Origin: a virus
Length of the DNA stretch: 64,000 nt
Virus record (IMG/VR): IMGVR_UViG_3300032307_000622
Location: 1-64,000 of that record
Strand: one strand, 5' to 3'
Position 1 is the stretch's first letter, and every line of letters starts with the position of its first letter. The position numbers and the translations under genes were made by a program. Shown piece by piece: positions 32,672 to 60,844 of the stretch. Below the pieces are notes generated by a model. It worked only from the letters and a program-made list of their open reading frames with translations. It was not told where the DNA came from and did not search any database.

Positions 32672-32769
32672 GGGGGTGTCAAGAGTGAAAGTAGGAAATC
32701 TCTCAACACCCCCTCAGTGCCCAGCTACCCAACCAGGCACCTTACTAGGGAGCTAGGCTCAACCTAATA
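32672..32769 (-). ncRNA. three-hairpin structured element B with anti-RBS loop
   Basis: Stems CTTATTAGG/CCTAGTAAG, GTGCCTGG/CTGGGCAC and GGGGGTGTTGAGAG/CTCTTGACACCCCC; last loop ATTTCCTACTTTCA. Confidence 0.55.
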
Positions 32770-34722: not shown

Positions 34723-34847
34723 TTTACTTTCTCCAACATCTCTGCCAACTTCTTCAGTTGCTCAGGGGTAAGGTTGTTCAATATATCTTCGTTGATTAGG
34801 TTGCTATTTGTCCACATAGAAACCATTGTAGCGTTAGGGTCTGACAT

Positions 34848-35216
34848 TTATTCCTCGTCTTCCTCTCCAAAGAATTGTCCAATAACAGTAACAAACTTAT
34901 CAGTCTCATCATCATTGGTAAACACAGCGTTGATGAATCTCAGGGAACAAGAATCCTCATACCAAGTAAGGACTAGGTCTTTCATCGCAGCAGGGGTATC
35001 AATAATAGTCTTATCATAACCATAGCCAATCATCTTCTCAGTCTGCTTAGCATCCATGTTTAGATAAATTTTGTGACAGCCATCAAAGGATACTGAGTCT
35101 GTTTGGTACATCAGGTCATCTAGGTTTGTTTCCTGGTTTCCCTCGCATAGATTACAGAAAGGGGTACAGTCAAAGTTGCCTTCGTGATTAGGGCATTCGA
35201 TGGTGGTATCAATCAT
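34848..35216 (-). CDS. hypothetical protein
   Basis: CPNHEGNFDCTPFCNLCEG followed by FDGCHKIY...SCSLRFI. Confidence 0.7.
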   Translation of the reverse strand: MIDTTIECPNHEGNFDCTPFCNLCEGNQETNLDDLMYQTDSVSFDGCHKIYLNMDAKQTEKMIGYGYDKTIIDTPAAMKDLVLTWYEDSCSLRFINAVFTNDDETDKFVTVIGQFFGEEDEE

Positions 35217-35400
35217 TGTCATCATCATCTTCATCCTCCTCTAGCTCCTCAACATCAATGTCATAGACACCATCATAGGTAATGTCGTTGTCCATAGAAT
35301 CTCCCCAACTAGTCCAAGCTAGCTGTTCGGCTGCCTCTGCTGATTCTGCTTCTAGCTCACCAGCAAAGTCAATACGCATCTTCACATAGTATTTGGGCAT
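35209..35400 (-). CDS. small acidic protein, VEAxxExEA family
   Basis: MPKYYVKMRIDFAGELEAESAEAAEQLA; SD AGAAAGTAG. Confidence 0.65.
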   Translation of the reverse strand: MPKYYVKMRIDFAGELEAESAEAAEQLAWTSWGDSMDNDITYDGVYDIDVEELEEDEDDDDND

Positions 35401-35553
35401 TTATCTACTTTCTTTAGGGTAGGTCTATTATGACATGACCCTCAGACATTTTGTAGTTTCTGGGAAAAAAGTTATGCGGTCGTAATTATTTTTTTATCTT
35501 AATCTATATGATTATTGAAAACCTGGGCGGCTCAATTTCGATCCATGAATGGA

Positions 35554-35580
35554 GGGCAGTTTATACTCATGCCCAGGAGT
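35554..35580 (-). ncRNA. 3'-UTR pseudoknot motif copy 3
   Basis: ACTC-CT-GGGCA-T-GAGT-AT-AAAC-TGCCC, 5 nt after the DUF932 stop. Confidence 0.65.
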
Positions 35581-35585
35581 GTTGC

Positions 35586-36590
35586 TTAGTTAGCTAAAAC
35601 CAACTGAAGCAGTCTGTTCTTTTCAGCAGTTGTCACTGGGTCAAAACCAGAAGCAGCTGCTAGGATAGATTCGTTAGAACCACCACGAGCAGAGCGGTAC
35701 CAGTCTAGTCTTTCAGTTAGAGCGTTGAAAGCTCCCCACTTAGTTCCAGCGATTGTGTTGTTATACTCACCAACATAGATTGCGTTGATTAGGTCAATCT
35801 TATCGTTGTGCTTTTTGAATGAGCCCTTAGAGTCTTTTTCTGGGGCAGGGTAAGCGAGTTCAACAATCTTGTCAAACTGTGCCTTGGTGATTTCAGTTTC
35901 AATCATAGCCTTAGCCATCTCATCAAACTTATCCATGTAAGCGTTAGCCAAACCAAGAGCCTCTCTAGCTTGCTGAACTTTGCCAGAAGCTGTTGCGGTG
36001 TGTCTAATCTTGAATGACTGCTTGACACTTCCACCTCTGCCACGATTACCAAGAGCAAGGTTTAGAGTGTTAGCACATACAACACGAACTGGTGTGATAC
36101 TAGCTTGAATGGCAACAGAACCATCATGGCTAGTGTTGATTAGAAGATAAGTGTTTACCTTATCAGACACGCCGTTAGGGTCTAGGATAGTCTCACGCTC
36201 AAGAGCAAGAGAACCAAAAACCTGTCTGCCACCCTTGATAGAGCCAGCAGTCTCCCAACGACCTCCGCCATCTAGCATCAGGTCTCCGAAATCAAACAAG
36301 TCTTCATTCTGAAGCGGAACATAACGCTCACCAACTACGCCAAGAACATCATTTTGTTCTGAGTTGAATGGGTTAGTTCTAGTTACGAATGAGTAACCCT
36401 TGTCTGAAGCAAAACCATCAGGAATTGCTACATCTTCCAAGCGAACATTCCAGTTAGACAAGTGTGCCAAGTCTAGCATCTCTGCTGTGGTTACTTCCTT
36501 GTCAAAGACTGTGCCTAGCCCATGCCAAGCTGGCTGGCGAAGGGAAGCAAAAGCGGTCTGTCCGTTTACGGTCTCTAGCTCATGTGCCAT
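35586..36590 (-). CDS. DUF932 / phage-plasmid protein (TIGR03299-like)
   Basis: MAHE...PAWHGLG, LGVVG.RY...QN, ETAGS..GGR, NTSHDGS, TPVRVVCANTL, RHT motifs. Confidence 0.88.
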   Translation of the reverse strand: MAHELETVNGQTAFASLRQPAWHGLGTVFDKEVTTAEMLDLAHLSNWNVRLEDVAIPDGFASDKGYSFVTRTNPFNSEQNDVLGVVGERYVPLQNEDLFDFGDLMLDGGGRWETAGSIKGGRQVFGSLALERETILDPNGVSDKVNTYLLINTSHDGSVAIQASITPVRVVCANTLNLALGNRGRGGSVKQSFKIRHTATASGKVQQAREALGLANAYMDKFDEMAKAMIETEITKAQFDKIVELAYPAPEKDSKGSFKKHNDKIDLINAIYVGEYNNTIAGTKWGAFNALTERLDWYRSARGGSNESILAAASGFDPVTTAEKNRLLQLVLAN

Positions 36591-36780
36591 GTTTTTCTAC
36601 TTTCTGTTAGGGGATTTCTAATAATCTAATTATAGGGTTACCCTCCGACATTGTCAAGGATTCAGGGCAAAATAATTAATCTTCGTAAATAACAGTTTGG
36701 TAACAAAATGGGGGCCGCCCAAATCCACCCACTCAGTATTTGTGATCACGAGATCTTCAGCTTTTGTGTGGGTGGCTGGG

Positions 36781-36808
36781 TGAGCAGTTTAGCGACATAC
36801 TCAGGTCG
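36781..36808 (-). ncRNA. 3'-UTR pseudoknot motif copy 4
   Basis: CGAC-CT-GAGTA-T-GTCG-CT-AAAC-TGCTCA. Confidence 0.65.
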
Positions 36809-36817
36809 TTTGTCTGT

Positions 36818-37264
36818 TTAGATAAGTTCCATTACAGACGAGTAAGATGAAGCAGAAACTTCCTCTTGCGTAGTCATACGAAGCACCTTGAGATTACGCT
36901 CTAGGATTTCCTTACGAGTTGAGTGTTCCCTACCAAACCACTCACGCTGGTTAGGCTTGCTTGGCTCAGTTGGCTTCTCTCCCAACCCAATTAGTTCTGG
37001 GTCTAGGACAAGTTCCAGCCTACCATTGTAGTTGGTTGAGATACGAATAACGCTATCGTAGTCATAACCAATCTTGGCAGAGTTGTTCTTGAGATACTCA
37101 GAAACAGCACTAGCAACCTTCTTCTTGTATTCCTCAGTTGCCAACTCATACTGCTTACGCTCATCTGCGTAGTTTGCTACTGCCTCGTCAATCTTCGCAA
37201 TAGACTTCTCAATGTCTGCGATTAGAACGGATACAGGGATTTTTACGGACATAGTTCTAGCCAT
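36818..37264 (-). CDS. hypothetical coiled-coil protein
   Basis: SD AGAAAGTAG; own promoter. Confidence 0.7.
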   Translation of the reverse strand: MARTMSVKIPVSVLIADIEKSIAKIDEAVANYADERKQYELATEEYKKKVASAVSEYLKNNSAKIGYDYDSVIRISTNYNGRLELVLDPELIGLGEKPTEPSKPNQREWFGREHSTRKEILERNLKVLRMTTQEEVSASSYSSVMELI

Positions 37265-37333
37265 AATTTATTTCTACTTTCTTTCAGGGTAATTACATTA
37301 TACATAGGGGGTAGGACATTTATTTAGTTGTGG

Positions 37334-37363
37334 TGAGCAGTTTATCTTGACTTGCTCAGGTCA
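37334..37363 (-). ncRNA. 3'-UTR pseudoknot motif copy 5
   Basis: TGAC-CT-GAGCA-A-GTCA-AGAT-AAAC-TGCTCA. Confidence 0.65.
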
Positions 37364-37373
37364 GAGGAGGTGA

Positions 37374-37520
37374 TTACTTTACAGTAGTCCAGCGAGGCTG
37401 TCCGTTTACATCAAGGCGAACACGAGCAGAGCCACTAGGGTTCTTTACGATTTCCTTGATAGTTCCAACGACACCAGACTTAGCGGTGGTGAACTGTGAG
37501 CCAACAGTTAGATTTACCAT
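37374..37520 (-). CDS. small beta-rich protein (48 aa)
   Basis: MVNLTVGSQFTTAKSGVVGTIKEIVKNPSGSARVRLDVNGQPRWTTVK; AAAGGAA SD; own promoter and pseudoknot. Confidence 0.7.
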   Translation of the reverse strand: MVNLTVGSQFTTAKSGVVGTIKEIVKNPSGSARVRLDVNGQPRWTTVK

Positions 37521-37725
37521 TTTGCTTCCTTTTCCGCCCCAGAGGGACTGTTTTGATTTATTACCAACCTTTGTTGATAGGTCTATTGTAGCCTAACCCT
37601 CCGACATTATCAAGCATTGTTTTATAACATTTCTGGGGAAAATTGTTATACTTCGTAACTTGACAAAATGTTGATCTTGGGGCGACACAAAACCCCCAGG
37701 ATGTCAAGTCCCAGGGGTAGTGTGT

Positions 37726-38274
37726 TTAGACTGCTTGTTCTTCTTTGAGGTACGAGTATACTCCGCACTTTGCTCTCTCACAATAGTCCTCATTAGTTAT
37801 CTCACGGACCTCTTGGAAAGTCAGAGTCAAAGTATTGTCTCCGTAGGTTGTAGCAAAGGTTTGGTTATCAAGATTTATGATGTAGATACCCTCACAGAAT
37901 AAATCATCATTCTTGAACTCTGGGTCTAGCACTAGCGGCACAGGGTCAGTAGCGTTGACAATTACCTCAAGAATACCAGCACCAGTATCTCTAGTTAGGC
38001 TAGGATAGTCCTTACTAAACCTCTCGCCATCTTCCAGACTTCCCATACCATCTTCTCTAAAGTAGTTGGCATAGATTTTCTTTAGCTCCTCATCACTTGC
38101 CTGATAGGTCAGGTGTAGGTCAAAGTTTTTCTCTAGCTTTTCGATGTTCGTTGGCTTAGACAAAAAGTTTACAATAGTGATACCCTGCCCACTTGGATAG
38201 TGGTCCCATTGACCATACTGGGCTACTACTGTCTTTCCGTTGTAAATTACCTCTGTAATTCCTCTAGTTCCCAT
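37726..38274 (-). CDS. hypothetical protein (MGTR...AQYGQWDHYPSGQG family)
   Basis: Start at MGTRG after AGAAAGTAGG. Confidence 0.7.
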   Translation of the reverse strand: MGTRGITEVIYNGKTVVAQYGQWDHYPSGQGITIVNFLSKPTNIEKLEKNFDLHLTYQASDEELKKIYANYFREDGMGSLEDGERFSKDYPSLTRDTGAGILEVIVNATDPVPLVLDPEFKNDDLFCEGIYIINLDNQTFATTYGDNTLTLTFQEVREITNEDYCERAKCGVYSYLKEEQAV

Positions 38275-38379
38275 TTTCCTACTTTCTTTTGTTGGTGAGA
38301 TTATTATACATTGGGGGTCAGACATTTAGGTTCTTAATTCGTAACTGTTATAAAGCTGTGATCTGGGCCGCCCTAAAGG

Positions 38380-38444
38380 TGGCCAGTTTTTCGTCATGGC
38401 CAGGACGTGGTCCACATGTTAGAAAGGATAAGAAGTGTGGACCA
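38380..38444 (-). ncRNA. anti-SD hairpin plus pseudoknot copy 6
   Basis: TGGTCCACA-[CTTCTTATCCTTTCTAACA]-TGTGGACCA, then CGTC-CT-GGCCA-T-GACG-AA-AAAC-TGGCCA. Confidence 0.6.
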
Positions 38445-38463
38445 TCTTGCCCCTATGCAAGAT

Positions 38464-38535
38464 CTATTTTCTGGAATATACAAATATGAGACATGCTATT
38501 CCTAGGAAGTACAGAGCCCAGTGATACAGCTCCAT
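38464..38535 (-). CDS. 23-aa hydrophobic peptide
   Basis: MELYHWALYFLGIACLIFVYSRK, coupled (TAATG) to the upstream stop. Confidence 0.4.
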   Translation of the reverse strand: MELYHWALYFLGIACLIFVYSRK

Positions 38536-39254
38536 TACTTTTTACTCGCACTAAACAATATGTCATTGCGAGCAAATACGCATTGTCCGCAGGTAACGCA
38601 GGCGGAACCCTTGTCGCTAATTAGCGGAAGTTTCTTAGCATTCTCAGGGCACGGTATTGCAGACTTGACGGTGATAGACAACATCCGCTCTTTACCGCTA
38701 GCAAAATTGTTAGCAAGATATGCAAGCTTTACGCCACTATCTTTCTTTAGCTTTTCTGCCAGCTGCCAGTTGTCATCATCAGTTGAGAAGTATAGTGCAA
38801 GGTTGTCAACATCGCTAAGAATTGGAACAGCAAAATCTGACCTCGTGTATACCCAGAATTGAATTTGGGGGAATGCCTTGATTACATTCTTCCAGGCCTT
38901 AGTATAGTCTTCACTAAAGAAGTCACCATCCCAGTGAATTCGAAACAGCTTTTCTGCATTACGCTTGTCACAATCTTTCTCAAACTCTTGAATCATTTGA
39001 TAAATTAGAATTTCCATTTCCAATTCATCTGCATTACGTAGCAGGTCCCAATTGTTTATGAGAACAGCTTTTACGCCCTTGTAGACTTTTTCGAGCTTGC
39101 CTGCATAACAGACTTTCTCGCATACACTTGTTGCTCCAGGGCAGGAATAAGCTTTCCCTGAAGGAAGGCCAAAAGTGTTCGCAATAGTTGGCGTTTTACC
39201 ATTTGGAGAGACTGCATTAGTTACCTTTCGGTCTTTAGAACGGATTAGGGGCAT
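38535..39254 (-). CDS. Gp88-like Cys-rich (radical-SAM-related) phage protein
   Basis: CPGATSVCEKVCYA, FRIHWDGDFF, FWVYTR, CPEN, CVTCGQC motifs. Confidence 0.7.
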   Translation of the reverse strand: MPLIRSKDRKVTNAVSPNGKTPTIANTFGLPSGKAYSCPGATSVCEKVCYAGKLEKVYKGVKAVLINNWDLLRNADELEMEILIYQMIQEFEKDCDKRNAEKLFRIHWDGDFFSEDYTKAWKNVIKAFPQIQFWVYTRSDFAVPILSDVDNLALYFSTDDDNWQLAEKLKKDSGVKLAYLANNFASGKERMLSITVKSAIPCPENAKKLPLISDKGSACVTCGQCVFARNDILFSASKK

Positions 39255-39299
39255 TAGGGGTCCTTTCAACAGTTATACTATAGCAGGGGGTACCGACAT

Positions 39300-39584
39300 C
39301 TATAGCTCTTCGTAGTATACCCAACCATCTAAGTGGTGAGCCTCTATGATAGCGTGAACAGGGGCAGCGGTAAGTCCTCTATAGCCAATACCCTCAGGAA
39401 GTCCAACTAACTTATCAAACTCACCCTCATTAGCTAAGTCAATAGCCTGAATACAAACAGGTACCATAGACTTAGGTACAGGGGGGAAGTGATTAGAAGT
39501 TAGGTGCCACTCAATAGCTTGCTCTAGTGTAATTGAACCAATCTCAGCTAGCTCTCTAAATTCTGTTGCGTGTAGTGAACCCAT
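39300..39584 (-). CDS. hypothetical protein
   Basis: WHLTSNHFPPVP...IIEAHHL; start MGSLHA is coupled to the upstream stop. Confidence 0.7.
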   Translation of the reverse strand: MGSLHATEFRELAEIGSITLEQAIEWHLTSNHFPPVPKSMVPVCIQAIDLANEGEFDKLVGLPEGIGYRGLTAAPVHAIIEAHHLDGWVYYEEL

Positions 39585-39745
39585 TACTCTACCTCTTCCG
39601 CTTCGGCAACATACCATTCACCCTCATCACCATCATTGATAAGGTTAGACTTACTTAGATACTTGTTAGCCTTTTCATAGGCCTCTTCTTCATTTTTAGC
39701 ATTGACAATAATGAATCCGTCATAAGCAACAGAATACTTTCCCAT
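39584..39745 (-). CDS. small acidic protein, VEAxxExEA family
   Basis: MGKYSVAYDGFIIVNAKNEEEAYEKA... Confidence 0.6.
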   Translation of the reverse strand: MGKYSVAYDGFIIVNAKNEEEAYEKANKYLSKSNLINDGDEGEWYVAEAEEVE

Positions 39746-39865
39746 TACTTTACCTTTCTTGTTGAGGGGTGTTGAACTCTAATAGCATAGCACCTACCAC
39801 AGACATTGTCAAGCAGGTGGCCGTACAAGTTTTCTGGTCTAATTAGTCTTTGGCAGTCTGTACAG

Positions 39866-40018
39866 TTATAGGTTTTCTTTGATAGCATTTCGTCTATTTT
39901 CACTTCTTGTGCCTTTCTTTGGCTTAGGGGTTATTACAGTGTGCTTAGACTTTAGCATAGAGTGAAACAACGCTTGACTCTCAGCCTTGCGTCTTGCTTC
40001 ATTTCTTTTTCCTAACAT
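39866..40018 (-). CDS. small basic protein (50 aa)
   Basis: MLGKRNEARRKAESQALFHS...KKGTRS; leaderless, TAAGAT 6 nt upstream. Confidence 0.55.
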   Translation of the reverse strand: MLGKRNEARRKAESQALFHSMLKSKHTVITPKPKKGTRSENRRNAIKENL

Positions 40019-40385
40019 ACTAAAATCTTAGCATAACCCTCTGACATTTTGGGAAAATTCCTGGGGCATTTTTAATAGACTACGTAAAGTTATTTCTAGA
40101 TCAGAATTGGGGCGGCACAACCAACGGACATTGTCAAGTGCGACACGCCGTAGTTGTGAAAGTTTTAGAACGGTGGTTGGTTTTTGCGGTATCCAATTCC
40201 GTGAGCAATCACATACACAACCGCAATTAGAATTAGGTCAATCATTAGGTTGAATCCGTTGTAAAAAATCATTTAGTTTTCCTCTCTTGTTGTGAATAGG
40301 CTACCAACACCCTCAGACATTTTATCTTCTGAGAGCATTAGGTCAATTTGGAAAATTAGGGTTTCTAGTTCTTCTACTGATAGGC

Positions 40386-40556
40386 TCACTTGTCCCCCTC
40401 CCACTCTAGGATTAGTTCTGCGATACGCTTGGCATCTTCTAGTGGCACATTAGGCATTAGGTATCCAACCATTCTCGCATAAGGGTATTGAGCCTTAGTC
40501 TTTAGAACTGCTAGGGCTGAGTCTAGTAGTTCGTGTGATTCTCTGTTGTAAGCCAT
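40386..40556 (-). CDS. hypothetical protein (56 aa)
   Basis: MAYNRESHELLDSAL...; AGAAAGGAA SD; own promoter. Confidence 0.55.
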   Translation of the reverse strand: MAYNRESHELLDSALAVLKTKAQYPYARMVGYLMPNVPLEDAKRIAELILEWEGDK

Positions 40557-40606
40557 TTATTTTCCTTTCTTCTGATACTTAGAATCTAGCATAGGGGTAT
40601 GACATT

Positions 40607-40756
40607 TTAGACTAGTTCCAGATACTCTTCTGGAAAATCTTCGCCAAGATAACTCCTGGCATCATCTAGGGGCATTAGTCCCTTGTAGTCATTACACTCG
40701 TGGCAAACATAGTCATTGACTAGGTTCATACAAAACACACAAATTGTTTCAGTCAT
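40607..40756 (-). CDS. small zinc-finger protein
   Basis: CVFC...CHECNDYKG. Confidence 0.6.
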   Translation of the reverse strand: MTETICVFCMNLVNDYVCHECNDYKGLMPLDDARSYLGEDFPEEYLELV

Positions 40757-40760
40757 TTAT

Positions 40761-40946
40761 TTAGTTTCCTTTCGTTGATAGTTCTAACTTAGCATAACCC
40801 TCAGACATTTTCTTGGGCAACACGCTGTAGTGATAGGGCAGGTGGTTTGCGTCCCACTGCTTGCGGTCTAGGTAGTAGCTAGTGCTTGTTTCTTGGACAT
40901 AGCCACAGCCTTTACATTCAGTTTTACGCCACATTCTTCTACTCAT
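40761..40946 (-). CDS. hypothetical protein
   Basis: CKGCG...H...H; own promoter. Confidence 0.55.
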   Translation of the reverse strand: MSRRMWRKTECKGCGYVQETSTSYYLDRKQWDANHLPYHYSVLPKKMSEGYAKLELSTKGN

Positions 40947-41150
40947 TTATTCCTTCTTTCTAACTACTAAAAACCTATCACGACCCTACGACATTTTGGG
41001 GACATTTAGGGGTGTGTCGTGATACTTGTTATCATTTTGTTATAATTCTGGGGGGTCTAGATCTAGTGTCTTAAATTGATCTGGGTACTAAATGTGGGCG
41101 GCACACAAAAGCGGATCTGTCAAGCAGACACGCCGTAGATTTAGAATTTT

Positions 41151-41261
41151 CTAGTGAATCTCACCATACTCATTCCAGCATGACTCACAGCCATACTCAT
41201 CTTCTTCTACTACGAAGACTTTCTCTACTACTACATCGCATAATTCACAAACTGAAAACAT
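41151..41261 (-). CDS. small CxxC protein
   Basis: MFSVCELC...CESCW; AGAAAGGAT SD. Confidence 0.5.
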   Translation of the reverse strand: MFSVCELCDVVVEKVFVVEEDEYGCESCWNEYGEIH

Positions 41262-41371
41262 TTGTTATCCTTTCTTTTATTTATCTTTATTTATCTTTAT
41301 ACTTATACTCTACTCCCTATTGTCCCTTTGTCAAGTTGACACGCCGTTATTTTTATAACTTTTTGGTAACA

Positions 41372-41488
41372 CTACCTGCTAGTGCTTTCGCAGTAGAGGC
41401 ATCCACCATTTACAGTTTCTGGAACTGTTGAGTGGAAGTCACAGACATAAGGCCTGCCTGTGGTTTCTATCTTTTGAATCTTTATCAT
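41372..41488 (-). CDS. small CxxH/CxxC protein
   Basis: ...VCDFH...GCLYCE; AGAAAGGAT SD. Confidence 0.5.
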   Translation of the reverse strand: MIKIQKIETTGRPYVCDFHSTVPETVNGGCLYCESTSR

Positions 41489-41630
41489 TTTTTATCCTTT
41501 CTTTATACTATTACTCTATAAAGGGGGTCTGACATTTTGGGGGATTTTTAGGGGTGTTTTATAGAATGTTACTATTTTGTTATAAACGTCGCCACCTTTC
41601 GGTGGGAATGTCAAATCGACACGCCGTGTT

Positions 41631-41804
41631 TTAGAAATTTTCTTTGTATAGCAAGTGAGTGATCACAGCAAACAAAGAAGCTACAACAACAAAGCCAGTG
41701 CCCAAGACCAGGCCATACATTATGAATCCATTGAGTGGAAAAAACCACATTGAAAAAATTGCGGTAAGTATTGAAGCAATTGTTAGAGTTAGGGTTGTTC
41801 TCAT
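41631..41804 (-). CDS. small membrane protein
   Basis: MRTTLTLTIASILTAIFSMWFF...; two TM segments. Confidence 0.55.
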   Translation of the reverse strand: MRTTLTLTIASILTAIFSMWFFPLNGFIMYGLVLGTGFVVVASLFAVITHLLYKENF

Positions 41805-41895
41805 TAGTTATCCTTTGCTAGTTCTGTTTCTAATACTACAATAGAGGCAATAGCCTTGTCAAATTCTTCCCAAGTGTCAAAAGTTAGAGTTATCA

Positions 41896-42087
41896 TTACC
41901 AAGCCCTTCTAGTTCCAAGTGCCTTAGCAACCTTGATTAGTCCGTTGATTTCGTTGATTAGTTCCCAACTAGGGTCATCAGAGATAGACATTAGCAAGTC
42001 AATCTCATCTTCTACAGCCTGTAGATTTAGGAGATTTACCTTAGCGTATCTAGTTAGGCTATCTGTTGGGGTTGTGTATCTTTTCAT
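41896..42087 (-). CDS. hypothetical protein
   Basis: AGAAAGGAT SD; own promoter. Confidence 0.6.
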   Translation of the reverse strand: MKRYTTPTDSLTRYAKVNLLNLQAVEDEIDLLMSISDDPSWELINEINGLIKVAKALGTRRAW

Positions 42088-42131
42088 TGTTTATCCTTTC
42101 TATCTAGATACTAGCATAAACCACCGACATT

Positions 42132-42260
42132 TTAGTCAGTGATTTTCACAATCTCAAAACCCATTTTCTTTAGGTTCTGAACCTGTGTTTCTAGAGTGTT
42201 TGGCATAGCACCAAACCAAATCATTGAGGAACCAACTTTGTTTACAAAAATCTTTTTCAT
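42132..42260 (-). CDS. hypothetical protein (42 aa)
   Basis: MKKIFVNKVGSSMIWFGAMP...; AGAAAGGAT SD. Confidence 0.5.
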   Translation of the reverse strand: MKKIFVNKVGSSMIWFGAMPNTLETQVQNLKKMGFEIVKITD

Positions 42261-42513
42261 TTTGTATCCTTTCTATTTATCTAATTTATCTTTATATATA
42301 TATCTAAACATACTATTAGTGAAAAGTCAAGTATCAAAACATACAAACTTTAGCGTGTCGTTTTGTAGGGTTCAAACAAAAGTTATTAACAGAGTTATTA
42401 ACAGGTGGCACTAGTGTGTGCTCACTAAGTTTTTTGTTGTGTTTGTTGTAAAATCTGCATCATACATCTCTACAAAATATTCAGATTTTGCAAAATATAA
42501 AATTTTTCAGATT

Positions 42514-43149
42514 TTACACTGTGGTGGGGTATTTTTTAAAATACTTCTCTAGCTCTGCATCTTGCAGGATTTGCATATTTTGGTAATGAGAAGGTAGCAG
42601 GTATTCTGATCCATCTATTGACATCTGACAAACCAGGATGTCTAAATAATCATTTTCAGAAAAATTGGTTGGTGGTCTCCAATGCATTTGGTGAGATCCA
42701 GAAAAGACTAAAGCTTCATTAGATGCGAGGGTATCACATGTATCATATGCACATAGCTCCCAATCCAAAGTACTATCCAATTGAATAGATAAAGTAATAG
42801 ATGGCTTCTTTAGCTGATTGTCGCTATGTGGTCTTAGCTCTGGCTGATGTCCAGTTTTAGTTGTATATCTAGCAAAATGTACTTGTGCGGTCTTAAGAGA
42901 TAGTCCTGTAACATCTTCTGTAAAATCTCTTATTGTTAAAAGAAAGTTATTGTCAAAACCTTTAATATATGCAAAATATCCTAGCTCTGGAACATTTAGA
43001 TATTCTAGACCTTCTCTATTATCTGGCGGTAGATCAGGAGCTAGCTCCTCTGGGAAAGCATTCTTGACGCATTCATACACATAGGCATAATCCTCCTGAG
43101 ATAAAACATCCTTGACAACAAAAGGCTTAAATTCTGTTAAGTTCGTCAT
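42514..43149 (-). CDS. 2OG-Fe(II) oxygenase-like protein
   Basis: ARY, LRPHSD, LDSTLDW, FSGSHQMHWR motifs. Confidence 0.7.
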   Translation of the reverse strand: MTNLTEFKPFVVKDVLSQEDYAYVYECVKNAFPEELAPDLPPDNREGLEYLNVPELGYFAYIKGFDNNFLLTIRDFTEDVTGLSLKTAQVHFARYTTKTGHQPELRPHSDNQLKKPSITLSIQLDSTLDWELCAYDTCDTLASNEALVFSGSHQMHWRPPTNFSENDYLDILVCQMSIDGSEYLLPSHYQNMQILQDAELEKYFKKYPTTV

Positions 43150-43765
43150 TTAGGCTTCTTTCCAGTAAGTGCTTATACTTCTCGATAAACTGTCCTGATA
43201 TCTTATCCATTTCGTCAAAGTAGCTATCCTCCAAGACGGTATCATCGTCATCTTCAATATATGTCTGCAAGATAATCACATCAAAGTAATCATCGTCTTT
43301 AAATTCTATGTCTGGTCTCCAGTGTACATCCTTAGATCCAGAGAAAAGCAATATCTGGTTCTTTTCTAGATTATATTTCTCGTCGTTCACATAGATATCC
43401 CAATCTAGTGTTGTATCTAGTTCTATAGTAGCTGTTAGGGATGGTCTCTTTACCGCCCTATCTACGTGCGGTCTTAAACGTGGACGATATCCAGAATCTC
43501 TTGTGTACCGTGCAAATAGGACACCTGGCAAAGCTACTGTGGCATGGAGGATATCTTCAAGCTTTTCTCTAATTGTTTCAACGACATCATCCTTAACTAC
43601 GTCAAAGTAAATAATAAAGCCGTTGTTGTCGATAACAGCAAAACCATCGTCATACTTGCCAAGATCATTTTTTAAGTTGTTTTCGATCTTTTCATGTACG
43701 GCCTCATATACCAAATCATAATGTTCTTTAGTTAAAAAATCTGAGGCTACAATAGTTTTTTCCAT
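43127..43765 (-). CDS. 2OG-Fe(II) oxygenase-like protein (tandem paralog)
   Basis: ARY, LRPHVD, LDTTLDW, FSGS...HWR; leaderless start at MEKT. Confidence 0.7.
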   Translation of the reverse strand: MEKTIVASDFLTKEHYDLVYEAVHEKIENNLKNDLGKYDDGFAVIDNNGFIIYFDVVKDDVVETIREKLEDILHATVALPGVLFARYTRDSGYRPRLRPHVDRAVKRPSLTATIELDTTLDWDIYVNDEKYNLEKNQILLFSGSKDVHWRPDIEFKDDDYFDVIILQTYIEDDDDTVLEDSYFDEMDKISGQFIEKYKHLLERSLNDELNRI

Positions 43766-43838
43766 AGATATATGATACACTATAGTTATGTGTAATGGCA
43801 ATTGTACTTGTGGCAAAGAGCAGCCACAGCCAAAGTAA

Positions 43839-44048
43839 TTATCGGATTATAGTATATTCTTTTAGCAGGTCGTAAAGCTCTCCGTTTACACGGTTTAGCT
43901 CAGGCTGCATCTCTTCTATTGCCTTGTCGATCTTTTCAGCCGAACCACCAATATTCAGCATTGCTTCACGATTCATCTTGTTAATGTAATCTGTCATTAA
44001 CGCTACAACTTCATCTCTAAACATTTCTACCATTTCTCCAAAGGGCAT
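43839..44048 (-). CDS. hypothetical protein
   Basis: Helical ORF; start uncertain. Confidence 0.55.
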   Translation of the reverse strand: MPFGEMVEMFRDEVVALMTDYINKMNREAMLNIGGSAEKIDKAIEEMQPELNRVNGELYDLLKEYTIIR

Positions 44049-57940: not shown

Positions 57941-60844
57941 ATGGCAACAGTAAACAAGAATTTTAAGGTCAAGCATGGCTTGGTCGTTGAAGGTACCACA
58001 GGTACCATTGCTGGTGAGGACATCCTTACCAAAAAGCAAGAAGATATTGATTATATTATTGATCAAGTTGGTGGCTCTGGTGTTCCTACTAATACCCCAA
58101 ATACCCTAGTCCTTCGTGATGAAAACGGAGACTTCGCTGCTAACGATATTACAGCAAATGAAATTAGCATTGGCTCAATAGGTCGCATTTACGATGACGG
58201 TGGCGACATGGTCATTGACAATCTTGATGGCAACGATGTTACGATTAATGCTGATGATATTAGACTTAATGCACAAGATGATGTTCGTGTCAGTGCAAAC
58301 GATTTAGTTCAGCTTACATCTAATAATGGAGACATTGAGCTGGTTGCAAATGGCAATGTCTACATTGGGACTGACAATAGTCCAGAATATGTGGTAGTTG
58401 CCAAGGGAACACTTGACAGCCACATTGGTGATGTAACTGTTGACGGCACTGCAGGAAACACTGTAACTGACAGAATTGCTACTGCTAAGCAGGAAGCTAT
58501 TGATGCTGGTTCTTCAGACGTAACCACTCACTCAAACCTTACAACTGGAGTTCACGGTGTAACTGGTGATGTTGTTGGAACAACTGACACTCAGACACTT
58601 ACAAACAAGACTCTTGGTTCTGGAACTAATCTTTCTGTAAACCTAGACATGAACGGTAACAAGATTGAAGATCTTGGAACACCTACTGCTGGTACAGATG
58701 CTACAACTAAGAACTATGTAGACGATGGAGATACCGCAACTCTTGGTTCCGCCAACTCCTACACAGATGACGAAATTACTGCACTAGACACTTCTCTAAA
58801 GGCTTATGCAGACCAGGCAGAGTCAGATGCAATTAGCTCAGCAGCTTCAGCTGCAGCAGCTCTATATGCACCACTTGCTGGAGCAACCTTTACTGGTGAT
58901 GTTATCCTTCCTGGAGACCCTACCCAGGCTCTAGGTGCAGCTACAAAGCAGTACGTAGACGCAGTTGCAGAAGGACTACACGTTCACGCATCTACAGTTG
59001 CAGCTACTACCGCAAACGTGGATCTTGCAACAGGTGGATTGCTAACAATTGATGGCGTAGGTCTTAATGAAGACGAGCGTGTTCTTGTTAAGAATCAGTC
59101 AAATGCAACTCAGAACGGTATCTACCTAGCCAAGCCTGGTGCTTGGGTACGTGCAGATGACTACAACTCTGCTGCAGAAATTCAGGGTGGTGACTTTACC
59201 TTCGTAACTGGCGGTAACACTTACGCAAATACTGGATGGGTTCAGACAAATGTTGTAACAACTCTAGGAACATCCACAATTAACTTCGACCAGTTCTCTG
59301 GTGCTGGAGAATATGTTGCAGGTACTGGTCTAACTCTAAATGGAAACTCATTCGCTATTGATGATACCGTTACAGCTACCAAGTCTTACGTAGATGGCGA
59401 AATTTCAGACCTAGACGCTGCTGCTCAAGGCTATGCAGATGATGCAGAGGTTGATGCAAAAGCGTACACTGATCAGCGTGAAAGTGCAATCACAACTGCT
59501 TACCAAGGTTATGCAGATAACGCAGAAGCTGATGCAAAGCTTTACACAGATCAGGAAATTTCTGCTCTAAACACTGATGACATTGAAGAAGGTCTTACCA
59601 ACGAATACTTCACAGATGCTCGTGCGAAAGGATCTGCTGCAGATCTTTTGGTAAATGCTAATAAGACAAACATTACCATTACTGGAAACGAAGATGGTCT
59701 AACCATTACTGCAGAAAATGGTGTTGCTCAGTCTACCACAGACGATTTGACTGAAGGATCAGCAAACCTATACTTCACAGATGCTCGTGCTCAGGCTGCA
59801 GTTGCAGGAGATATAACTACTGCAATAAACGCTCTTGACACTGATGCTATTGAAGAGGGCGTAGGCAATCTTTACTTTACAGATCAGCGAGCACTTACTG
59901 CTACATCTTCAGCATATGACCCAGCAGGTTCTGCTCAGGGTGCTTATGACAATGCAGTGTCTTACACAAACACAACGCTTGAAAATTACACTCCAACAAA
60001 CTCGCTAGATTCAGTAGTTGATAATTTTGGATTCCTCAAGCAAGAAGATCTTACAGGCTATGCAACAGAAACCTATGCTAATAATGCTGCAAATACAGCA
60101 CAGCAAAATGCAGAAAGCTATGCAGATTCCAAGATCAGTGATTCCTCATCTGCCTCAGACAAGGTTTGGTCCGCATACAAGACAAGCACTGAGATTAGTC
60201 TTGCTCAGGCAGCTGCAGAGCTACACGCAGATAACGCAATTGCTGCTCTCGTAGATGCTGCACCATCAACTCTAGACACTCTAAATGAGTTGGCTGCAGC
60301 ACTTCAGGATAACCCAGACATCATTTCTGACCTTCAGGATATTGCTGCTGGAAAGCAGGATACACTAACTGCTGGAGCAAACATTGACATTACAGGGGCA
60401 ACAATCTCTGTAACTGGTCTAGACACTAACGATGTTTCTGAGGGTACAAACCTGTACTTTACAGACCAGAGAGCAATTGATGCAGTTCAGAATACAACTC
60501 CAGTCTTCTCAGCAGTTGATATTGATTCAGTTGCTAAGCAGGTTGCAGCAAGTCTTGAAGCATCAACAGCAGGACTTCAGGTAGCATATGCCTGGAACAA
60601 GTCAGAATATCGTTCAGCAGAATTCCTTGTAAAGGTTGAAACCTTGACAAACTCTGAAATTTCAAAGATTCTTCTGACACTTGATTCTTCAGACAACATT
60701 GCAATTACTGAATATGGAATTGTTGGAACAAATGGCTCAATGTCATCTGTTTCAGCAGGTATCTCAGGATCAGATGTACAACTTGAGGTAACAACCACTA
60801 ACAATAACTCAGTAGTTACTGTTATGGGAACTCTACTAGCATAA
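57941..60844 (+). CDS. long tail fibre protein
   Basis: 967 aa; NLYFTDxRA, ATKxYVD and LDTLNELAAAL repeats; RVLVKNQ...NGIY. Confidence 0.8.
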   Translation: MATVNKNFKVKHGLVVEGTTGTIAGEDILTKKQEDIDYIIDQVGGSGVPTNTPNTLVLRDENGDFAANDITANEISIGSIGRIYDDGGDMVIDNLDGNDVTINADDIRLNAQDDVRVSANDLVQLTSNNGDIELVANGNVYIGTDNSPEYVVVAKGTLDSHIGDVTVDGTAGNTVTDRIATAKQEAIDAGSSDVTTHSNLTTGVHGVTGDVVGTTDTQTLTNKTLGSGTNLSVNLDMNGNKIEDLGTPTAGTDATTKNYVDDGDTATLGSANSYTDDEITALDTSLKAYADQAESDAISSAASAAAALYAPLAGATFTGDVILPGDPTQALGAATKQYVDAVAEGLHVHASTVAATTANVDLATGGLLTIDGVGLNEDERVLVKNQSNATQNGIYLAKPGAWVRADDYNSAAEIQGGDFTFVTGGNTYANTGWVQTNVVTTLGTSTINFDQFSGAGEYVAGTGLTLNGNSFAIDDTVTATKSYVDGEISDLDAAAQGYADDAEVDAKAYTDQRESAITTAYQGYADNAEADAKLYTDQEISALNTDDIEEGLTNEYFTDARAKGSAADLLVNANKTNITITGNEDGLTITAENGVAQSTTDDLTEGSANLYFTDARAQAAVAGDITTAINALDTDAIEEGVGNLYFTDQRALTATSSAYDPAGSAQGAYDNAVSYTNTTLENYTPTNSLDSVVDNFGFLKQEDLTGYATETYANNAANTAQQNAESYADSKISDSSSASDKVWSAYKTSTEISLAQAAAELHADNAIAALVDAAPSTLDTLNELAAALQDNPDIISDLQDIAAGKQDTLTAGANIDITGATISVTGLDTNDVSEGTNLYFTDQRAIDAVQNTTPVFSAVDIDSVAKQVAASLEASTAGLQVAYAWNKSEYRSAEFLVKVETLTNSEISKILLTLDSSDNIAITEYGIVGTNGSMSSVSAGISGSDVQLEVTTTNNNSVVTVMGTLLA

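Follow-up and report, generated by a model that had tools for sequence, protein, structure and literature searches.

A hairpin that presents the complement of a class of early ribosome-binding sites (RBSs), fused without a gap to a compact H-type pseudoknot, lies on the minus strand of virus record IMGVR_UViG_3300032307_000622, at positions 38444..38408 (hairpin) and 38407..38381 (pseudoknot). The window that we analyzed is the first 64 kb (64,000 nucleotides) of this record, which has a total length of 116,302 bp and carries direct terminal repeats. Comparison with related viral sequences indicates that the hairpin and pseudoknot constitute a real and conserved structured RNA element of the sense strand. 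The reading that we prefer, and to which we assign a probability of about one half, is that the module acts as an anti-ribosome-site regulatory RNA, the loop of which would pair with Shine-Dalgarno (SD) regions of the AGAAAGGAUA class and most likely lower their translation, with the pseudoknot as a putative cap or scaffold.

A sequence-only reading of the window had described a minus-strand 9-bp stem with its loop, directly followed by the pseudoknot, and had proposed that the loop is complementary to the RBSs of the genes that start at 42087, 42260, 41488 and 41261. Both descriptions hold, and the matches, which span 12 nt at the first gene and 11 nt at each of the other three, are slightly better than had been claimed. 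The 10-mer AGAAAGGATA occurs five times in the genome, namely in the four RBSs and as the complement of the loop. When the duplex energy with the loop was calculated for 2565 candidate starts, the four genes ranked 3, 5, 6 and 7, while ranks 1, 2 and 4 were taken by G-U-rich matches elsewhere. No Pfam family was found in the four encoded proteins, which are 36 to 63 amino acids (aa) long. Folded alone, the hairpin has an energy of -12.1 kcal/mol with its loop open, and the loop is also open in the minimum free energy and centroid structures of a 146-nt context. As 71 inverted pairs of 9 nt or more occur within 30 nt in the window, a lone 9-bp hairpin is not rare, and the significance of the element must therefore come from its loop and conservation and not from its stem.

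In the mechanism that we propose, the module would be transcribed on the gene-sense (minus) strand at the end of a unit made up of a GP88-family gene and a small open reading frame (ORF). The hairpin would keep the pyrimidine loop (...UAUCCUUUCUAA...) open with the compact pseudoknot directly behind it, and the loop would base-pair with the SD regions of AGAAAGGAUA-class messages, which come from the four genes located 3-4 kb earlier in the same leftward block. Such pairing would compete with the 16S rRNA tail and most likely lower the translation of these messages once transcription reaches the module. The pseudoknot most likely provides a stable 3' cap or scaffold.

A loop that is not conserved in relatives was among the refuting conditions named by the sequence-only reading; the loop is in fact conserved. 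Relatives of the GP88 gene were collected from 80 loci, and the intergenic module recurs where GP88 is at least 75% identical. A scan for the exact pseudoknot returned 27 loci with 21 distinct variants. Twelve of these carry an upstream hairpin (hairpin 1), the anti-SD hairpin (hairpin 2) and the pseudoknot; four (L083, L094, L104 and L105) carry hairpin 2 and the pseudoknot, with the stem beginning at the upstream stop codon; and five (L016, L082, L090, L093 and L099) carry only hairpin 1 and the pseudoknot. Although this set was found through the pseudoknot alone, the core UCCUUUCU is present in the loop of all 16 copies of hairpin 2, and 15 of 15 distinct variants fold with the core in the loop. 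A strict pseudoknot finder gave 450 pseudoknots (295 distinct) in 1.86 Mb and none in shuffled sequence. The core lies at most 50 nt upstream of 71 distinct pseudoknots; in 70 of these cases UCCUUUCU is enclosed by a stem of 5 bp or more, and 49 different arm pairs are represented. Only one of the 224 pseudoknots that lack the exact core has any CCUU, UCCU, CUCC or CCUC hairpin loop upstream, which means that the core is all-or-none and not drifting. As for hairpin 1, its tip is always AUAGGGG or GGGG, and in five variants it replaces the anti-SD hairpin directly before the pseudoknot, as if the hairpin-plus-pseudoknot arrangement were a scaffold for different loops.

Support for the fold comes from paired changes. 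MAFFT alignments (A1 and A2) failed to align stems of different length, and A2 was used only as the seed for a covariance model, R1, which found close sub-families well and GGAC-type sub-families weakly. The alignment derived from R1 (A4) has 31 distinct rows, of 67 distinct sequences; five rows (two distinct sequences) are pseudoknot-only and were kept. In A4, 93.8% of the cells of the hairpin and of both pseudoknot helices are paired, as compared to 69.0% in shuffles, and covariation reaches 0.594 against 0.166 in shuffles (0/500 reach the observed value), with slid controls at 0.102 or less. Changes on both sides occur in 10/10 hairpin pairs, in three of the four pairs of the first pseudoknot helix (P1) and in two of the five pairs of the second (P2). 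At 290 distinct sites chosen regardless of P2, 173 pair at all five P2 positions, as compared to 62 expected after shuffling of the 3' strand (P2'). A simpler best-stem measure was too permissive, giving at least 5 bp in 311/403 background sites, and we therefore relied on the A4 covariation test. The stems contain 44 G-U pairs among 391, and because these would be A-C on the other strand, the RNA fold is assigned to the gene-sense (minus) strand.

The element matches no Rfam family. Rfam 15 gave no non-tRNA match in the window; at E up to 10, the region 38200-38600 yielded four chance-level matches, the best being MicA on the opposite strand with 21.2 bits against 41; and in 12 related loci only tRNAs and one transfer-messenger RNA (tmRNA) were detected. 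A tmRNA (RF00023, 102.6 bits) is found at L187 1014-1338 (-), a related viral contig. Three further readings of the loop were dropped by eye: a boxA, whose AACA part varies in relatives; a CsrA site, for which GGA is on the wrong strand; and a Rho site, for which the loop is too short.

The loop core is identical to the last 8 bases of actinobacterial 16S rRNA. Because a core that mirrors an SD must resemble the 16S tail, this likeness is best seen as a necessary by-product of the mirroring and not as an independent property, and the informative bases are those that flank the core. These flanks differ among relatives together with the RBSs. The L012 and L014 loops run on as ...UAACUAAC, and in the L014 group ...UCCUUUCUAACUAAC occurs with the sites TTAGTTAGAAAGGATA (16 nt), which are also those of the L012 phage; the L085 loop UUUAUCCUUUCU (UUUAUCC...) matches AGAAAGGATAAA at seven genes; in the L029 and L145 groups, the loop ...UCCUUUCUUUC occurs with the sites GAAAGAAAGGA; and L105 has the loop CUUACUUCCUUUCU with the sites AGAAAGGAAG. 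Across 45 distinct loop types, the top three contiguous matches average 9.23 nt at the own locus versus 8.79 nt at other loci, a result obtained in 2 of 10000 permutations with kinship ignored. Where the 3' flank of the loop core is A, the sites, AGAAAGGA, are preceded by U in 11/18 cases, as opposed to 21/154 for U loops (Fisher p 2e-5), and the 5' flank of the core is associated with the complementary base beside AGAAAGGA (p 0.03 and 0.0075). Thus, the covariation of loops and RBSs for which the sequence-only reading had proposed to search related phages is present, and seed and target change together across relatives in the manner that membership among trans-acting small RNAs (sRNAs) calls for, kinship again being left aside.

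Promoter-linked relatives bear on whether the loop would act in cis or in trans. Nine variants have a TTGACA-17-TATAAT or TATACT promoter directly upstream, 15-20 nt before the stem, and share the order promoter, hairpin, pseudoknot, AAAGGAG site (at a distance of 10-15 nt) and small zinc-ribbon-like gene (PF09723, 31 bits, below the cut-off of 34.4). Their records contain clusters of AGAAAGGAAAA(A) sites on the opposite strand that match the UUUUUUCCUUUCU loop over 10-12 nt, and because the matching sites are on the opposite DNA strand, pairing there could only be intermolecular. Such relatives, with a dedicated promoter and sites on the other strand, fit the earlier suggestion of action in trans; as a whole, the interpretation given by the sequence-only reading is supported in part. 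In 49 of 70 variants the site that matches best is found further upstream, and in 15 it is found further downstream; in three it is that of the first downstream gene, and in another three that of one of the nearest two upstream genes, such that neighboring genes account for 6/70.

These distributions also weigh on two readings in which the loop would act within its own transcript. As a cis-acting leader, the module would mask the RBS of the downstream gene with its anti-SD loop, and the nine promoter-linked variants provide the best case, since their loop could form about 7 pairs with the AAAGGAG site. In the window, however, a promoter-like motif lies between the module and the gene that comes next, and the site of that gene (start 38274), GAAAGUAGGAAA, is mirrored by a different hairpin at 32.7 kb and not by the one at 38.4 kb. 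With the first downstream gene being the best match in only 3/70 variants, we regard a leader function as quite improbable in general, although it is conceivable for the promoter-linked sub-family. Alternatively, the loop might fold back on the SD of GP88 or of the small ORF to bring about autoregulation, as in the icaR mRNA. The module is positioned in a 3' untranslated region (UTR), after the small-ORF stop and before the next promoter-like motif, as this would require; the GP88 RBS is among the best matches in L002, L003 and L014 (12, 11 and 15 nt); and such a mechanism has been shown for a UCCCCUG motif (PMC3868564). The GP88 site of the window, on the other hand, is only GAAAGGA (7 nt), only 3/70 variants match best at the first or second gene upstream, and the promoter-linked variants have no upstream gene in the transcript. 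Self-pairing is thus improbable, and action in trans remains our preferred reading.

The pseudoknot has a wider distribution than the hairpin. The genome contains exactly six copies (16189+, 20422+, 35580-, 36808-, 37363- and 38407-), and in five of these the distance from the preceding stop codon is 5-13 nt. Mycobacterium phage PegLeg has the pseudoknot with identical P1 and P2, 6 nt after the gp104 stop and 3 nt before a tRNA-Arg gene, and 18 more mycobacteriophage records contain it as well, 17 through the identical 27-nt match and one through a weaker match. Roseophages SIO1, P12053L and ICBM2 (L230-L232) have an ACAC/GAGCA variant after the ribonucleotide-reductase gene, and Arthrobacter phages give a weak match (E 9). 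In the cultured-phage records (PegLeg, ICBM2, P12053L and SIO1) the pseudoknot is unannotated. BLAST searches with three module variants, a method blind to variable stems, matched only the pseudoknot in cultured phages and did not find the anti-SD hairpin. The occurrence of the pseudoknot after stops in cultured phages implies that it is a general phage 3' UTR element, and that the anti-SD hairpin is an add-on in one phage group. A frameshift or readthrough role was rejected after inspection of the six copies by eye, which revealed neither a slippery site at a suitable distance nor a long open extension. With E up to 10, no match to preQ1-I (RF00522) was found; all six copies in the genome have a junction of 1 nt, and no SD is involved.

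Such a distribution would suit a purely structural 3'-end element that protects the upstream message from 3' exonucleases or marks processing or termination, with a loop that has no pairing partner. The pseudoknot alone is the commoner module (224 of 295 distinct copies lack the hairpin, with 0 in shuffles), it follows stop codons both in this genome and in PegLeg, SIO1, P12053L and ICBM2, and the module itself is situated between a stop codon and the next promoter-like motif. What a structural role leaves unexplained is that the 8-nt loop core is constant across 49 different stems, that loop flanks vary together with the flanks of RBSs, and that some variants sit behind their own promoter. 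We consider it unlikely, though not to be dismissed lightly, as an account of the whole module.

An invariant core may also point to a protein ligand. The loop might imitate the 16S 3' tail as a decoy for a protein, such as a MazF-type endoribonuclease or another factor that recognizes the single-stranded tail, and so soak up a host defense or ribosome factor. The core is invariant and identical to the last 8 bases of the tail; it contains UCCUU, and U-type loops contain UUCCU; and, among cultured phages, actinobacteriophages provide the nearest relatives of the phage's proteins. The terminal 11 nt of 16S rRNA contain the anti-SD, MazF-mt3 cuts U^CCUU and MazF-mt6 cuts UU^CCU, and such toxins remove or cut the anti-SD (PMC12274833). 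A decoy predicts no relation between loop flanks and RBS flanks, yet this relation is seen, and the CCUCC part of the tail is never in the loop. We give a decoy a low likelihood.

The sequence-only reading had also raised the possibility that the loop is simply the complement of the RBS of a real plus-strand ORF, here a frame of 29 aa with a GTG at 38435. The plus strand does present AGAAAGGATAAGAAGTG with the same 6-nt spacing as the phage's real sites, followed by the 29-codon frame. In 50 of the 70 variants, however, there is no antisense start codon 3-12 nt after GGA; the frames are shorter than 20 aa in 14/70 and at least 20 aa in only six, with unrelated peptides; the stem G-U pairs fit the minus strand only; and all neighboring genes are on the minus strand. 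Since start codons are absent in most variants and the longer frames are unrelated, this explanation was rejected, and we consider it hardly credible.

Several observations weigh against a regulatory RNA acting on RBSs. The window copy of the module has no promoter of its own, and the terminator scan found no terminator-like U-tract on the sense strand at the module, which hence lacks the form of an intrinsic terminator. A run search recovered 15 sequencing runs containing the stretch, all of which are of DNA type and 0 of RNA. The invariance of the 8-nt core fits a sequence kept for itself, through protein binding or 16S mimicry, equally well; moreover, the looser pattern (core, gap and generic pseudoknot) that extended the family to at least 119 contigs demanded the exact core, so that the core could not vary in this set. 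Fitting alignment A4 to the structure favors that structure, and the simple stem-length control is weak, with stems of at least 7 bp in 51/71 variants and in 108/403 background sites. The own-versus-other difference in match length is small, both the permutation and the Fisher tests ignore shared descent, and the base beside the core fits the majority of sites in only 10 of 15 pseudoknot-anchored variants. AGAAAGGA sites are present in 36 of 54 GP88 loci without the hairpin, and the co-occurrence of hairpin and sites in GP88 loci is weak (0.32 vs 0.23 per kb, p 0.02, 22 vs 54 loci). Within the DNA examined, L005, L008, L025 and L187 have no own-locus advantage, and the lowest score within short loci (6.0) belongs to the nine promoter-linked variants. 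The lack of a flank effect in such lineages is partly due to coverage, as the full records of the promoter-linked variants do contain matching sites. One contig (L008/L095) carries two hairpin-pseudoknot modules 3.2 kb apart (L095 2019-2081 and 5191-5254), which have different stems and loop flanks of AUCC and UUCC; the presence of two modules may account for the mismatch of L008 with its mostly GGAA sites.

A second hairpin in the same genome suggests a wider pattern. This 14-bp hairpin at 32.7 kb folds at -22.8 kcal/mol, and its 3' arm overlaps a TTGACA-17-TACAAT promoter-like site. Its loop mirrors GAAAGUAG(GAAA), the RBS of five genes situated between the two hairpins (starts 38274, 37264, 36590, 35400 and 33508), and by duplex energy the starts 38274 and 33508 are its best partners. 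GAAAGTAG has eight occurrences in the genome, five of which are these RBSs, with one loop complement among the remainder. For each of the two hairpins, the gene group mirrored by its loop lies upstream with respect to transcription. A tentative extension of the preferred reading, which we rate as possible but doubtful, is an RNA-only timing circuit in which successive early-gene groups would have their own extended RBS address, each then mirrored by a hairpin loop further along. AGAAAGGAUA would be the address of the four genes at 42.3-41.2 kb and GAAAGUAG(GAAA) that of the five genes at 38.3-33.5 kb, and a polymerase reaching each hairpin would switch off translation of the preceding group. 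Relatives would then vary address and loop together, and some would carry two modules with different loops.

The coordinates of these features are collected in Table 1. The G+C content is about 40%, and gene direction is leftward between about 32 and 44 kb. The module sits in the 3' part of the GP88 transcription unit, between the GP88 gene and a gene of 182 aa (start 38274). GP88 is followed by a small hydrophobic ORF of similar length in many relatives, distant ones included. AATGTC-N12-TAnnnT occurs at 14 sites in the window as compared to 1.0 expected, all of them on the minus strand at 34.8-42.1 kb (34825-42131) before early genes, and probably represents the promoter type of the early or middle genes of the phage, with a non-canonical -35. 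When the AATGTC-N12-TATAAT of the 38274 gene is read as a promoter, the module becomes the tail of the GP88 transcription unit. Two plus-strand sites were called inside the module by the consensus terminator scan, at 38366-38384 and 38444-38463, because the A-rich pseudoknot loop and the small-ORF end read as T-runs on that strand; these sites could stop antisense transcription or be due to chance. A further word, ACGGCGTGTC(N3-4)TTGACA, stands just after the stops of the earliest genes (40140-40165, 41118-41157, 41329-41368 and 41609-41648), with GCCGCCC next in two of the four copies and then GATC in one, and is a post-stop element distinct from the pseudoknot.

Table 1. Positions of the module, its predicted target sites and associated features in the window, and of the matching pseudoknot in phage PegLeg.
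Feature	Sequence	Coordinates	Strand	Remarks
Hairpin 1	ATCTTGC / loop AUAGGG / GCAAGAT	38444..38463	-	AUAGGGG motif conserved in relatives
Hairpin 2		38408..38444	-	9-bp stem, 19-nt loop; gapless junction with pseudoknot
Hairpin 2, 5' arm	TGGTCCACA	38444..38436	-
Hairpin 2, loop	CUUCUUAUCCUUUCUAACA	38435..38417	-
Hairpin 2, 3' arm	TGTGGACCA	38416..38408	-
Invariant loop core	UCCUUUCU	38421..38428	-
H-type pseudoknot	CGTC-CT-GGCCA-T-GACG-AAAAAC-TGGCC	38381..38407	-	P1 CGTC/GACG, loop 1 (L1) CU, P2 GGCCA/TGGCC, A-rich loop 3 (L3) AAAAAC
G+C-rich motif 3' of pseudoknot	GGGCGGCCCAGATC	38360..38373	-	similar words after other pseudoknots and other stops
Predicted target RBS, 42-aa gene (start 42260)	TAGAAAGGATA	42265..42275	-	11-nt match to loop
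Predicted target RBS, 63-aa gene (start 42087)	TAGAAAGGATAA	42091..42102	-	12-nt match to loop
Predicted target RBS, 38-aa gene (start 41488)	AGAAAGGATAA	41492..41502	-	11-nt match to loop
Predicted target RBS, 36-aa gene (start 41261)	AGAAAGGATAA	41265..41275	-	11-nt match to loop
GP88-family gene		38535..39254	-	PF17338, Pfam E 3.1e-55; phrog_1392, E 2.3e-99
23-aa hydrophobic small ORF	MELYHWALYFLGIACLIFVYSRK	38464..38535	-	ATG overlaps GP88 stop (TAATG); own stop directly before hairpin 1
Promoter-like motif of next gene (start 38274)	AATGTC-N12-TATAAT	38303..38326	-	55 nt past pseudoknot
Second hairpin, 14-bp	loop AUUUCCUACUUUCA	32713..32672	-	folds at -22.8 kcal/mol
PegLeg pseudoknot		L228 1500-1527, record 58573-58600

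Neighboring genes relate the phage to actinobacteriophages. The best of 523 records for the nearby DUF932 protein is 55% identical (Streptomyces phages), and, by host of the phage, Mycobacterium accounts for 189 of these records, Streptomyces for 116, Arthrobacter for 50 and Microbacterium for 48. When species genomes were scanned with the DUF932 protein, eight loci (L208-L215) were obtained that are close relatives on contigs of metagenome-assembled genomes, labeled Lishizhenia, Methylococcus, Bifidobacterium, Actinomycetota, Bacteroidia, Nitrososphaera, Rhodoferax and Polynucleobacter. Because these labels are of unrelated taxa, we read the contigs as misbinned phage contigs, and they indicate no host. 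A near-identity search of 36000-44000 against cultured phages gave no match. The sequence-only reading had further suggested that an RNA directed at SDs would spare many leaderless phage mRNAs, which is only weakly borne out: of 154 genes with a length of 60 aa or more, a rough tally classed 12 as leaderless candidates and 126 as having an SD-like motif.

Exposed pyrimidine seed loops directed at SD regions, for which no long duplex is needed, are known from the Gram-positive sRNAs RsaE/RoxS, RNAIII and mycobacterial 6C and from the phage RNAs P22 Sar and P1 C4. To our knowledge, none of these has the motif, the pseudoknot or the 16S-tail-identical core of the phage module, and Sar and C4 are encoded antisense to, or beside, their own targets, unlike the module described here. 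The pseudoknot for its part recalls those of luteovirus frameshift sites and preQ1-I aptamers, which are compact H-type folds in which loop 1 is 2 nt long, the junction is 1 nt and loop 3 is A-rich. The order of elements is alike, with P1 of 4-6 bp, CU, P2 of 5 bp, 1 nt, P1', (N)AAAC and P2'. In contrast to the luteovirus pseudoknots, the phage copies have no slippery site or open extension frame past the stops examined (by eye), and in contrast to the preQ1-I aptamers, the 1-nt junction leaves no space for a ligand-binding loop.

Closer likenesses are found in three systems. Cuckoo RNAs (CcsR / alpha-r14 type) of Alphaproteobacteria carry a CCUCCUCCC motif on two to four adjacent hairpins of a chromosomal sRNA (PMC4615179). 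Like the phage module, they combine highly variable stems with one fixed pyrimidine anti-SD-like loop motif, and are hard to find by sequence but easy to find by motif plus fold. The phage core is UCCUUUCU (16/16 pseudoknot-anchored variants) and not CCUCCUCCC, however, and the phage module has a single motif hairpin together with an H-type pseudoknot, hairpin 1 carrying AUAGGGG. In the Staphylococcus aureus icaR mRNA, a 3' UTR pyrimidine motif pairs with the SD of its own 5' UTR and blocks initiation (PMC3868564). The phage module likewise has an SD-complementary pyrimidine motif in a message 3' UTR, but it matches best with other genes, at a distance of 1-5 kb or on the other strand, and an SD of the same message is best in 3/70 variants. 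Finally, T4 RegB cleaves early messages within their GGAG sites and leaves later ones intact (PMC3014915). RegB/RegA and the proposed phage RNA have in common a phage-encoded inactivation of early messages at the RBS, in which the SD class is the address and later genes are spared; the effectors are proteins in T4, whereas an RNA loop is the proposed effector here. Anti-SD loops on variable stems and anti-SD motifs in 3' UTRs are therefore already known (PMC4615179 for the former, icaR for the latter), and what is new is the loop motif, its fusion to a pseudoknot, the phage setting and the class-specific match to early RBSs. A literature search, which did not extend to supplements, found no description of the hairpin-pseudoknot motif.

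If the preferred reading is true, a large group of uncultured phages would silence classes of early messages by small RNA loops and not by proteins like T4 RegB/RegA, with the address written in the bases that flank the SD core. The module would then be an unusually clean and computable case of seed-target co-evolution in a regulatory RNA family absent from Rfam, and would offer a ready-made orthogonal part pair of ribosome-site class and anti-site hairpin. Because the pseudoknot is present in cultured Mycobacterium smegmatis and roseobacter phages, at least this half of the module can be tested at the bench now.

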